From: an uncultured Acidobacteriota bacterium
GTDB taxonomy: Bacteria > Acidobacteriota > Thermoanaerobaculia > Multivoradales > UBA5704
Assembly (NCBI GenBank): GCA_963832495.1
Contig: CAWHUF010000005.1
Location: 1,813,766 to 1,877,765, forward strand
DNA length: 64,000 bases
Direction of reading: 5' to 3'
A model generated the notes under the pieces. The model was not told the DNA's origin, made no database searches, and was given only the letters and a program-made list of their open reading frames with translations. Positions 26,451 through 30,546 of this stretch are shown here, piece by piece (positions within the stretch are counted from its first letter, which is position 1; every line of letters begins with the position of its first letter). Made by a program: the position numbers and the translations under genes.

Positions 26451-29400
26451 CTACTGCTGGTTGCCGAAGTACACGTTGGTGAGCTGATTGGCCGTCACGG
26501 TGACCGTCTGTGGGTTCTGGGTCGTCGCCGTCCAACCGGCCTGCAGCGTCTCGGTGATGGTGTACGTCCCGGCAGGGAAGCCTTTGCAGAAGCCGCCGCC
26601 AGGCCCTGTGGTAACCATCGTGCTGGTATTTCCTCCAGTGACCTGGAAGACCCAGCCCGCAAGGAACGGTTCGGGCGCGTTCTGCACGCTGTTGCCGTCC
26701 CGGTCGAAGAATTTGAAGATGCAGAAGCTCGCCGTTGCCCGTTGGTTGGCGGTTGCCGAAGAAGAGGTCCACCGTCTGTCCGGCGGTGACGGTCGCCGTC
26801 TGCGTGGTCTGCGTGGTAGCCGTCCAACCAGCTTGCGGCGTCTCGAGGACCGTGCAGCTTCCGGCGAAGAACGAGGCACAGGCCTCGCCGTTCGGGCCGG
26901 TGGTGAGCGTGGTGCCAGCGCAGCCGCAGCTCACCGGGAAGACCCAGCCTTGGAGCCCCGCCTCGCCGCTGTTCGGAGCGCCGTTGCCGTTGAGGTCGTT
27001 GAACTTGTGCACGCAGAGCTTGCCGGTGCAGGTCTCGATCTGGCAGTTGCAATCGAGGCCGCTGCTGCCGGATTGATGTTTGACGTTGCTCCCTGAGCCT
27101 CCGATCAGGAGGTCGGCCCCGGGTCCGCCCCAGAGCTGCGTCGTTGCCCGCGCCGCCCAGCAGCACGTCCGGGCCGTTGCCGCCGTCGAGCTTGTCGTCG
27201 CCGGAGCCTCCGAGGATGAGATCGGAATGGCTGTCGCCGAACGCCAGGTCGTCGCCGTTCCCGGCGAACAGCAGGTCCGGGCCGTTGCCGCCGTGCAGAC
27301 AGTCGTTCCCGTCGGCGCCCCAGACGAGGTCAGGACTGTCGTCGCCGTACAGGCAGTCCTCCCCGTCGCCGCCGAAGAGCAGGTCGGGGCCGTTGTCGCC
27401 GTGGATCAGGTCGTTGTCGAGGTTGCCCCAGAGCAGGTCTGGCTGGTCGCCCCCGCTGATGACGTCGCTCTGGTCGCCGCCCCAGATCAGATCGGGTCCA
27501 TTTTGACCCTCCATCTGATCGACTCCCGGGCCGCCCCACATCAAGTCGGCGCTCGACCCGCCGAACATCGTGTCGCAACCGTCTTCGCCCCAGAGGAGGT
27601 CCGCGGAGAGGAACATCCACCACGCTCCCAGGTCGCCGCGGATCACGTCGTTCCCGGAGCCTCCCCAGAGGAAGTCGGTGCTGACGCCGCCGTCCATGTC
27701 GTCGTCCCCCGGCCCGGCCCACAGGAAGTCGGGCGAAACCCGCAAGGGAGTGCTGTTGTCCCCCTTCATCGTGTCGCAGTCGTCCTGCCCGAACATCAGG
27801 TCCGTGGCATTGCCGCCGTCCAGGAAGTCGGGCCCTGGTCCCCCAAAGATCAGATCGGCCGAGAGCGGTTGATAGATGTAGTTCGAGTCGCCGAGGATAT
27901 GGTCGGCCCCGTCGCCACCGAGGATCAGGTCGGGCGAGCTGCCACCGTTGATGGTGTCTCCTCCCGGCCCGCCGAAGATCAGGTCCGGAGAGATGAGCGG
28001 AATCGATTCATCGTCCCCCGTCATGGTGTCGCCGTCGCCGCCGCCGAGCATCACATCGAGGGCGTTGCCGCCGTCCATCACGTCCGGACCCGGACCGCCG
28101 AACATCGCGTCGGTCGAGGCGACGAGCAGGAGTGAGTTGCTGTCGCCCTCCATGGTGTCCTGGCCGTTGCCTCCCACCAGGAGATCGGGCTGGGAGCCGC
28201 CGTGGATCGTGTCACCGTCGTCTCCGCCGAAGATCAGGTCGATCGAGTTGGTCAGGAGGGGGGACTCGTCGTCGCCCTCCAGGTAGTCGTTCCCGCTGTC
28301 GCCGAAGATCAAGTCGATATCCACGGCGAACGGCTGCTGGCCGCTGCCGTCGTAGCCCCAGAGGCTGTCATTGCCTGGGCCACCTTTCATGAAATCGGCG
28401 TCGCCGCCGGCCCACATCCTGTCCCTCTTCAGGCCGCCGAACATGACGTTGCCAATGCGGACCGGTACGCCCTGGATCTTGCAGACCTCGCCCCCCGCAT
28501 CGCCGTACAGGTCGTCTTCGTCATCGCCGCCGATCATGAGGTCGACCTGGTCGTAGCCGTGGAGCTCGTCGGCGCCGTCATTGCCGACGATCGCGTCGAC
28601 CCCGGGGCCGCCGAAGAGCTTGTCGTCCCCCAGGTTGCCCAGCAGCAGGTTGCCGAGGAGGATGGTCGTGTTGCAGAAAGAGACGCTGTGGCCGTCGCCG
28701 GCGTTGGTCGCGCCATCGCCGCCATAGACCATGTCCCCGTCGCCGTTGCCCATGGCGAAATCCATCTCCTCATTGCCGTGGATGGTGTCCTTGCCGCCGG
28801 TACCGAAGAGGAGGTCGATCCCGCCATTGCCATCGATCGTGTCGCCACCGCCGGCGTGGGTCGGGTCGAGGAGATCGAGCACGTCGTCGCCGAACGCCAG
28901 ATCGACGCCAGCTCCGCCCGACAGCGTATCCACCCCTCCCGGGGTGCCCCAATTCTGCGGGTCTGCGAAGTTGTCGCCGGCCACGAGGTCCACGCCGTCG
29001 TCGCCCCAGATGCAGTCATCGCCGGTGAGGAACGGGAGATCGATCAGGAATTCGCCGAAGAGAAAGTCGGTGCCGGCATTGCCATGGATGTGATCGTTTC
29101 CACGCAGCCCGAAGATCACGTCGGTGTTCGGTCCGCCCTGGATGTCGTCGTCGGCTAGGCCGCCGAACAGGATGTTGAAGCCCCCGCCTCCGTTGATCGA
29201 CCAACTCGCCGTGGGAGCCGAAGGAAAGAAGAAATCGAAACCGCTGCCACCCTGGTAGAAGTGAGTCACTGGGATGGGAGTGGCACAGCTCGCCTGGGCC
29301 TGCCGGGCCACCGGCCCGTTTCCCCCCGGTGCGGCTTTGTCGGAGGAGAGGGACACGGAGCGCGAGATCTCCTCGCTCAGGGCCCTGCCCGCCTGCTCGA

Positions 29401-30546
29401 AGCTCCCCGCCATCGACTGGAGGCTTCCTGGACGACGGCGAGCACACGGGCGGAGGCAGCCGTCAGCTCCTCTTCGATCTGTACCGAAAGGCCGTCGGCG
29501 GTGGTGGCGAGAGCCTCCGCCCGCTTCTCGATCCCGGCTGCCCGCTCCTCCAGGCGCCCGGCGTCGCGTTCGATCTGCAGTGCGGACGTCTCGATTTTCT
29601 CGCGGGCCGCATCCCCGAGCTGCCGGCCCGCCTGTTCCAGGGCTTCGGCACGCACCCGGAACGCCTCGGCCTCTTTCTCCTGTGCGGCTGCCGCCGGGGG
29701 CTCGGCTTCGTCCTCCGTGTCCCTCTGCGGGGGCGGCTCGCGGTCGTCGTCCCGCGGGAACACGCCGTTTGTGGGGTCGTACCGCCGGCTCAAGTCCGCC
29801 GCGAGCTGCTCCTGTTGCGCCCGGATCGCGTCCGCTTGGGCCAGGAGGGAGTTGCTCAACTCGATCAGACGCGGCTGTGCGCGTTCGGCGAGCTCGCGGG
29901 CCGGGCCGAAGAGCTGGCCTTCGGTGTCGGTTTGCAGGGATTTCGCGGCATCCAGCAGTTGGGTCCGCACGGACTCGATCTGGCGCAGGGTATCGTTCAG
30001 GAGCGCCGAGGAGGTCGCCTCGCTGGCGCGCTGGGCCACGCTCTCCAATTGCTGGGAGAGGTCCAACAGCGACCTCAACGATCTGGCGGTCTCCGGCTGG
30101 AACGGGAGGTGGGTGATCGCAACGGTGTTGTCCCCGTCGCCGCCGTCGATCCGCAGGATTTTCTTCCCGGTATCGAGGAGCTCCTCCGGATCGACGACGT
30201 TCACGAAGTCCTCGCCCCCGCCGGCAAGGATCTCCAGCCGGTCGAAGGCGTCGAGAGGGAAGGACGCGGTCTGCGGCGCCCCTTGCCCGTCCTGCCGGCG
30301 ATAGTCGAGGGTGAGGCTCGCCGGATTGTTCTCCACTCGGACCAGGATCGTCTCCGCCGCGCCGGTGCCCACGAGGTGCAACGTGCGCCCCTCGTCGAGA
30401 AAGGCCCGGAAAGTACCTCTTCCCTGGGCGGCACCGCCAACGGCACAGGAAAACAGGCTCATGAAGAGGAGAGCCCGCTGCAGAATGGCTCGCCTGCGGC
30501 AAAGGGATGCTCGTATGGGCACGGGGAGCTCGCGTGGGAAAGTCAT
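26451..30546 (-). CDS. giant secreted RTX-repeat protein (~1360 aa): Sec signal peptide, ~100-aa N-domain, ~250-aa coiled coil, ~800 aa of hemolysin-type Ca-binding nonapeptide repeats, two C-terminal SdrD-B/Cna-B-like beta-sandwich domains; at least 3 homopolymer frameshifts
   Basis: N-terminus (29377..30546 frame): MTFPRELPVPIRASLCRRRAILQRALLFMSLFSCAVGGAAQG, then a long alanine/glutamate/glutamine-rich coiled coil. Middle (frame of ORF 26495..30502): 9-residue periodicity D-x-[LIVMF]-x-G-G-x-G-x for ~80 repeats (e.g. DLLWGEDGC/DTMFGGSSA/DLMWGGPGV/DQMEGQNGP/DLIWGGDQS...). C-terminal pieces in two further frames give FNDLNGNG...LETPQAGWTATTQT...VTAGQ and FDRDGNSVQNAPEPFLAGWVFQVTGGNTSTMVTT...YTITETLQAGWTATTQNPQTVTVTANQLTNVYFGNQQ*. 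The frame junction at about 29410 is explained by one G missing from GGGGG. Confidence 0.65.

Follow-up and report, generated by a model that had tools for sequence, protein, structure and literature searches.

A predicted Sec-exported RTX surface protein of a rare family, encoded across three frame breaks in the deposited sequence of an uncultured Acidobacteriota bacterium

It has been described previously that RTX proteins combine nonapeptide repeats with export by a type I secretion system (T1SS) through a C-terminal signal, without an N-terminal leader (PMC3034196, PMC8047123). BapP of Pseudoalteromonas tunicata, a large Ca-dependent adhesin, has a predicted Sec/SPI leader, and its export route was left unresolved (PMC12153261). 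Here we analyze an RTX gene on the minus strand of a 64,000-nucleotide stretch of DNA from an uncultured Acidobacteriota bacterium (GenBank assembly GCA_963832495.1, contig CAWHUF010000005.1, positions 1,813,766 to 1,877,765; hereafter the window, numbered from its first letter). The explanation that we favor overall, with some reserve, is that this is a single gene of a rare family encoding a Sec-exported RTX surface protein, that the breaks in its reading frame are likely artefacts, and that it lies on an accessory segment.

The gene, its protein and its family

The coding region runs on the minus strand from an ATG at 30546 to a stop at 26451-26453, and the sequence reads as a ribosome-binding site (aaggagg, 30547-30560) 5 nt before the ATG. 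No single open reading frame (ORF) in the ORF listing covers 30546-26451. Three-frame translation together with a sliding plot of GC content at third codon positions (GC3) resolved four abutting coding segments in three reading frames of the minus strand: segment A from 30546 to about 29423, which is a 389-aa ORF; segment B from about 29425 to 27140; segment C from 27138 to about 26731; and segment D from about 26729 to 26454, directly before the stop. Joined together, segments A to D encode a repaired protein of 1365 aa (the full-length product being of about 137 kDa), in which a signal peptide, a β domain of about 105 aa, two helices of about 100 residues each, an RTX region of about 690 aa, a Cys knot and two SdrD_B-like domains follow one another.

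The frame changes were located concordantly by the GC3 plot, by tblastn with intact homologues and by a frameshift-aware Viterbi model, which was trained on intact genes and run over the window. Break 1 (29420-29427, context gaa-gc-ctccag) passes from frame 1 to frame 0 by −1 or +2 nt; the GC3 plot, the homologue alignment, the junction of tblastn high-scoring segment pairs (HSPs) at 29416/29428 and a Viterbi site at 29423 all place it there. Break 2 (27136-27142, gac-g/c-agctctgg) is a +1 nt change whose repair gives GGAGND-[Q/E]LW-GGPGAD, and homologues have D[EQT]L[WF] at this point; the tblastn junction is at 27128/27144 and the Viterbi site at 27139. Break 3 (26719-26733, gagct-t-ctgc), again +1 nt, is repaired to GNGE-LCIFKF where homologues have GNGE[IV]CI[YR]K, and it is supported by tblastn and by a Viterbi site at 26721. 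A preliminary description of this DNA, made from the letters alone, had taken the region for one minus-strand gene of about 4.1 kb. It was right about the single gene and about the order of the domains, but the gene is not one open frame. Its single-gene status follows from the intact homologue at locus L010 (1344 aa, Pyrinomonadaceae), which is colinear across all four frame segments: residues 28-1342 align in four tblastn HSPs and three frames, and the frame switches fall exactly at the junctions. Minus-strand 26451-30546 therefore reads as one gene that was ancestrally continuous.

Residues 1-41 (30424-30546) form a probable signal peptide, as proposed earlier, and comprise a basic, Arg-rich n-region, a hydrophobic core ALLFMSLFSCAV and a c-region AAQ↓G (the arrow marks the predicted cleavage site). 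By a heuristic of hydrophobicity and charge only, the leader has a charge of +6, a core of 12 residues with a mean Kyte-Doolittle value of 2.3, and the end G-A-A-Q↓G; the homologues L007, L008, L010 and P0006 have clean Sec leaders that line up with it and end in SAQ↓G, VAQ↓E and AAQ↓G. Two other readings of this leader were rejected. A Tat signal (RRRAIL) found no match to Tat models in Pfam and NCBIfam scans, and a lipoprotein (LFSC) was dismissed as the Cys is not conserved among orthologues and the PROSITE-type lipobox rule is unmet. Residues 45-150 (30097-30414) are modelled by AlphaFold2 (AF2) with a multiple sequence alignment as a β domain of 9 strands, with a predicted local distance difference test score of about 90; this model replaced a poor one made from the single sequence. 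In the alignment, G111, D113, D119, G136 and G138 are invariant and two motifs recur, GG.DFVN (AGGGEDFVN in the window protein) and GGDGDN. The β domain has no Pfam or NCBIfam match and no significant fold match in the PDB.

The stalk that follows (residues 151 to about 410, 29321-30096) spans break 1. It had been described as a coiled coil of about 250 residues; a helical stalk it is, but the same kind of AF2 model divides it into one helix at 151-256, a disordered loop rich in acidic residues and Pro at 257-284, and a second helix from 285 to about 410 (the model covers 285-373 and beyond), with the β domain of about 105 aa in front of them. The two helices of about 100 residues are modelled as an antiparallel hairpin, which would be about 15 nm long. 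A linker (residues 411-462, 29165-29320) with an invariant Cys422 leads into the RTX block through a motif conserved in the alignment, FDFFFP..SW.I.GG. The N-terminal 460 aa as a whole match nothing in Pfam or NCBIfam, and the fold search yielded generic helical hairpins only.

Residues 463-1155 (27085-29164) form the RTX region, which spans break 2 and has a pI of 4.05 with 155 Gly and 134 Asp plus Glu. The preliminary description had proposed frameshift repair followed by HMMER against Pfam; when this was done, HemolysinCabind (PF00353) matched the repaired protein in 15 stretches with E=5.8e-57, and weak SdrD_B and SpaA matches were obtained at the C-terminus. In the NCBIfam scan only RTX-repeat models were found. 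The array is thus confirmed, but the earlier count of about 80 nonapeptides was an overestimate, the region holding about 60-65 turns; 16 repeat units match the strict GGxGxD pattern and 57 an anchored D-x-U one, and a super-repeat of 43 aa (9+9+9+16) underlies part of the array. The repaired protein contains 20 Cys in all.

The C-terminal part begins with a Cys knot linker, HQSGSSGLDCNCQIETC (residues 1156-1178, 27016-27084), which is conserved in the homologues P0002, P0004, P0006, P0007, P0014 and P0016. Two SdrD_B-like domains follow, residues 1179-1266 (26752-27015) and residues 1276-1363 plus the stop (26451-26723), as recognised by Pfam and the family profile and, for the second domain, by tblastn; the end VYFGNQQ corresponds to the end of L010, IYFGNRKNQ. 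Pfam scores at the repaired C-terminus are weak (SdrD_B 1.9e-4, SpaA 4.6e-4), and the window's own SdrD_B copies reach 22 bits against a gathering threshold of 29.7, which the homologue P0006 exceeds with 76.6 bits. A profile built from 17 C-terminal domain copies of the family matches Staphylococcus aureus SdrD (10ps_A, 4.1e-9) and a collagen adhesin (6fwv, 3.6e-8), and 15 of these 17 copies match Pfam SdrD_B (PF17210). The two SdrD-B/Cna-B-like domains that had been claimed for this end are thus borne out at the level of the family. Conserved Cys pairs in the C-terminal domains suggest disulfides in place of the isopeptide bond of Cna_B.

To which family does this protein belong? An exhaustive HMMER search with its N-terminal 374 aa picked out 23 representatives from 1.84 billion proteins, 7 of them at E<1e-30; for 14 representatives the E-values lie between 1e-82 and 1e-16. 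The similarity is significant over the N-terminal region of about 460 aa and is accompanied by the same downstream order (Cys linker, RTX, Cys knot). The alignment of the N-terminal module has 20 invariant columns. Intact homologues of 1344-2091 aa exist (those in the HMMER set being of 1474-2091 aa): apart from L010, at least six share the N-terminal module, the RTX block and the Cys knot, and L007 and L008 are also colinear with the window gene. Common to all members are the N-terminal module, the linker with the invariant Cys, the RTX block and a knot of the form SSGLxCxCQ, and Cys numbers range from 8 to 36 per member (16 to 32 in acidobacterial ones). The modules after the knot vary, including SdrD_B/SpaA arrays, DUF11, He_PIG, GEVED and one PagL-like barrel. 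The genome loci come from Blastocatellia, Pyrinomonadaceae, other Acidobacteriota, Planctomycetaceae and Fuerstiella metagenome-assembled genomes. On these comparisons, this is a rare, previously uncharacterised family of Acidobacteriota and Planctomycetota, with the N-terminal β domain and helical hairpin module as its apparent hallmark.

Some members have features of their own. In P0002 (locus L002, 10001-15922) a PagL-like 8-stranded outer-membrane barrel lies at residues 1873-1959, after SdrD_B, SpaA_4 and He_PIG; the annotated N-terminus of this protein has no leader, and an insertion sequence (IS; DUF772/DDE) stands immediately upstream. The planctomycete proteins P0005, P0007, P0014 and P0016 (loci L009, L012 and L013) have a basic N-terminus ending in LE(Q/R)R(L/Q)LL instead of a Sec leader, and GEVED domains at the C-terminus.

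Export route and the origin of the frame breaks

Sec leaders of the textbook kind (MKHTILFVIAFLQLFV...SAQ↓G and alike), ending in xAQ↓, precede the conserved mature N-terminus in L007, L008, L010, P0004 and P0006. The RTX block is internal: it ends about 210 aa before the C-terminus, and the tail is occupied by the Cys knot and the two SdrD_B domains. The large ORFs of the window include no ABC_membrane, HlyD or OEP genes, which would stand for the ABC, membrane-fusion protein (MFP) and outer-membrane factor (OMF) components of a T1SS, and no ABC exporter, membrane-fusion or TolC-type gene lies beside the homologues in nine loci (L001-L008 and L010); the earlier remark that T1SS genes are missing nearby is true for all large ORFs of the window. 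Compared with the four features of T1SS RTX proteins, the window protein has the repeats and departs in the three others, namely a C-terminal signal, the absence of a leader (as judged by the heuristic above), and linkage to ABC/MFP genes. Since acidobacterial members have Sec leaders, the C-termini are unrelated and T1SS genes are absent from the examined loci, Sec-dependent, non-T1SS export of the family protein seems likely, and we infer that no T1SS exports it. The earlier argument that, with a Sec leader and a C-terminus unlike that of T1SS substrates, export must differ, is in this way supported at the family level.

As to the frame breaks, they form part of a pattern across the window, which the preliminary description could not have revealed. 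The Viterbi model placed 29 frameshift sites in the 64 kb, the three RTX sites and about 26 in other genes, in clusters that span 49.5-52 kb, 59.7-63.6 kb and 26.7-32 kb. Of the 29, about 19 look like insertions. Sites were called in coxM (7369), in a 160-aa gene whose orthologue has 260 aa (31972-32036), in a DUF2891 gene (49548-49888), in an unnamed gene (50757-51006), in a DUF885 gene (51739-51905), in a gene of about 930 aa resembling FAD oxidoreductases (59687-61887), in a Rieske oxygenase (62311-63040) and in the gene after it (63533-63636). Pfam and the translations confirmed breaks in the DUF885 gene (three), the DUF2891 gene (four), coxM (one) and the Rieske protein (at least one); the DUF885 gene is split over two frames, with its C-terminal part still matching Pfam at 1e-139. 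In-frame stops are absent throughout, and the codon bias is intact (GC3 0.8-0.9). At 32038 the window has +1 nt relative to the close relative L016, whose orthologue is of 260 aa rather than 160 aa. Because each affected gene contains several indels, keeps its codon bias and strong domain scores and is free of nonsense codons, the three RTX frame breaks are probably indel errors of an error-prone long-read assembly, and the organism itself probably has an intact gene. Another relative, L015 (ENA ERZ25039530, contig_46049), has about 60 scattered single-base indels in 6.5 kb relative to the window, with most genes broken; this contig shows plainly what a long-read assembly from the same lineage looks like without correction. 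Errors at AGCT methylation motifs were considered and rejected: four or five hand-located sites adjoined AGCT, but only 5 of the 29 Viterbi sites did, against a baseline of 9.2% (P=0.12).

Several observations weigh against Sec export and against assembly error. In the window leader the n-region is unusually long and rich in Arg (RRR), and an Arg lies within the hydrophobic stretch. Planctomycete members have the LExRxLL motif in place of a classical hydrophobic leader; therefore, Sec export may not hold family-wide. The T1SS search covers 64 kb of a 3.48-Mb replicon, and a T1SS could sit elsewhere, as tolC often does. It may thus be asked whether the protein is an ordinary T1SS substrate, with secretion genes elsewhere and an uncleaved hydrophobic stretch at its N-terminus. 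RTX arrays typify the cargo of T1SSs (PMC3034196, PMC8047123), T1SS genes and tolC above all may be unlinked, and a similar conflict between Sec prediction and T1SS neighbourhood is on record for BapP (PMC12153261). However, what follows the RTX block is about 210 aa of folded β-sandwich, not a C-terminal signal of about 60 aa; the C-termini of the members are unrelated, one of them being a PagL-like barrel; the five acidobacterial members named above have textbook leaders before a conserved mature N-terminus; ABC, MFP and OMF genes are found at none of the examined loci; and the protein is rich in Cys. We consider an ordinary T1SS substrate very improbable, and Sec export remains the preferred reading.

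Are the breaks then real? They are present in the deposited record: P0001, the sole public protein from the locus, is 100% identical to the 389-aa N-terminal ORF. The breaks lie outside long homopolymers. No reads or independent assembly of the RTX gene were found by exact look-ups of ORF fragments, and a protein word search gave P0001 only. In about 10 kb of flanking genes, compared with the short-read assembly of a close relative, there are zero uncompensated indels; therefore, the assembly is not uniformly noisy, and the clusters of breaks could come from genuine decay of genes that are dispensable. The RTX gene would then be a young pseudogene in a gene-shedding genome or island, still yielding no more than a secreted N-terminal fragment of 389 aa; it is accessory DNA absent from relatives, with an IS1182 insertion close by, and the DUF885, DUF2891 and Rieske oxygenase genes could likewise be dispensable. 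Neutral decay that gives several indels per gene should also yield nonsense and missense changes, as substitution-to-indel ratios imply. In the window, about 29 frameshifts in 64 kb, 3-5 per affected gene, are accompanied by zero in-frame stops, GC3 is undiminished and Pfam scores are strong; most breaks read as insertions, although bacterial mutation is deletion-biased; and of the operon partners coxM, coxS and coxL only coxM is broken. A pseudogene appears less likely than assembly error. A further possibility, raised in part by the preliminary description, is that the segments are separate functional genes, with the leader in a short ORF, or that they are joined by programmed ribosomal frameshifting. 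The deposited leader does sit in a 389-aa ORF with a good ribosome-binding site and start codon, and an ATG at 29413 could initiate the RTX part. But homology attributes this to a frame break: every intact homologue is one ORF through all three junctions, so that the region stays one gene; about 210 further codons of frame 0 after the RTX block spell Arg-rich nonsense; no plausible start codon stands at the head of segment C or D; the three shifts do not all go the same way, and none of them has a slippery heptamer; and comparable breaks occur in unrelated neighbour genes. Separate genes and programmed frameshifting are effectively refuted.

If the gene is intact, as assembly error would imply, its product may be pictured as follows. 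A cleavable Sec-type signal peptide would carry the unfolded chain through the inner membrane. Beyond the cytoplasm, Ca2+ would fold the RTX array of about 690 residues into a long β-roll, and the roughly 20 Cys could pair as disulfides. The N-terminal β domain and the hairpin of about 15 nm may serve as a base or oligomerisation module, and the two C-terminal SdrD_B-type Ca-binding β-sandwiches may form a distal, lineage-variable and probably adhesive end. From its domains the protein is probably surface-exposed and calcium-binding; a role as an adhesin or S-layer-like stalk is a guess from the same domains.

Genomic setting

The gene and a 108-bp leader occupy a segment of 4.26 kb (26399-30654) with a 38-nt direct repeat on either side. 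The left copy (26361-26398, plus strand) is the 3' end of a glyoxalase gene, and the right copy (30655-30691, plus strand) runs on into sequence that in RTX-less relatives stands immediately after the glyoxalase gene; the two copies are identical at 31 of 38 positions, with a score of 39 against a shuffle maximum of 29. In three close relatives (L015, L016 and L017) both flanks are present with 86-93% nucleotide identity and the RTX segment is absent, its place being taken by carbonic anhydrase or other small genes. An intact transposase gene of the IS1182 family (23639-25033; NF033551, 5.9e-111) lies between ABC permease genes and the glyoxalase gene; this copy is not at the site in L015 and L016, and an identical protein is recorded on two contigs. 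Because relatives lack the segment, direct repeats flank it and the IS1182 copy is specific to the window, the RTX gene reads as strain-specific accessory DNA at a hot spot of indels, which was either acquired here or lost by the relatives.

Other elements were seen nearby. Between 30743 and 30981 lie 6 of the window's 8 GTGTAAA heptamers (0.79 expected), including two palindromes TTTACAC-N17-GTGTAAA. An operator array for the RTX gene was considered and rejected, the block (about 75% conserved) being found directly 3' of the glyoxalase gene in RTX-less relatives too; it is probably an intergenic element of the repetitive extragenic palindrome (REP) or terminator type. A 75-nt imperfect inverted repeat (31712-31786 and 31810-31884, 76% complementary, with a 23-nt spacer) stands just 3' of the stop of a small minus-strand gene, with a short repeat GCCCTTTCAGGGCGG close to it. 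At 35517-43062 at least four paralogues match TIGR03436 (acidobacterial VWFA domain) with no Pfam match at 1e-5, and a gene resembling CAAX proteases comes next; these paralogues are the chief sequence clue to a probably acidobacterial source, with which the acidobacterial identity of the nearest homologues agrees. No rRNA or tRNA genes were found in the 64-kb window.

Relation to known systems

We tentatively propose, on odds that we put at a little below even, that the family is an undescribed class of giant envelope proteins of Acidobacteriota and Planctomycetota, in which an RTX β-roll of about 700 residues would be exported via Sec, the β domain and hairpin of about 15 nm would form a cell-proximal base, and exchangeable Ig-like modules at the C-terminus (a PagL-like outer-membrane barrel in one member) would be the business end. 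If this is true, the RTX fold is separated from the T1SS, a pair that current reviews treat as defining, and the question arises of how such an array is kept unfolded, or folds, in the periplasm and how it gets across the outer membrane. The unannotated N-terminal module would be a target for structural study in two little-studied soil and aquatic phyla. As for the deposit, with its many clustered single-base indels, calls of 'pseudogene' or 'split gene' here need read-level confirmation.

With the T1SS RTX proteins (HlyA, CyaA and serralysins; PMC3034196) the window protein has in common the tandem GGxGxDxUx nonapeptides, the strongly acidic pI and a Ca-dependent β-roll whose folding is expected solely outside the cytoplasm. 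It differs from them in that its RTX block is internal and not near the C-terminus, that it ends in folded SdrD_B domains which vary within the family, that it has a predicted N-terminal Sec-type leader and many Cys, and that the examined loci of the family have no linked ABC/MFP genes. In adhesins of the LapA/MpIBP type, a retention module at the N-terminus bears a LapG di-alanine site, BIg extenders are present, and the RTX region and the T1SS signal are C-terminal. LapA, MpIBP and SiiE resemble the window protein as modular Ca-binding surface proteins of megadalton scale, which combine an N-terminal module without repeats, rigid repeats stiffened by Ca, and a variable region that probably binds a ligand. 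The polarity is different: here the RTX array is long and central, and the Ig-like domains are C-terminal to it. The window protein has no BIg extender array and no homology to a retention module or LapG site in Pfam/NCBIfam and fold searches, and it has a predicted Sec leader, without T1SS or LapG/LapD genes nearby. The B domains of SdrD and Cna, which belong to Gram-positive MSCRAMMs, share with the C-terminal domains the profile match to SdrD, a Ca-binding loop F.D.NGNG..D..E and an arrangement as tandem stalk-like β-sandwiches. In contrast to SdrD, the window protein belongs to a diderm host, has neither an LPXTG sorting signal nor an A-region, and its family's domains each have conserved Cys, the window's own copies staying below the Pfam threshold as given above. 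BapP has no sequence relationship to the window protein, being composed of a β-propeller and cadherin/BIg repeats without an RTX β-roll, and T1SS-like genes adjoin its gene; what the two have in common is a predicted Sec signal in conflict with the RTX/T1SS paradigm.

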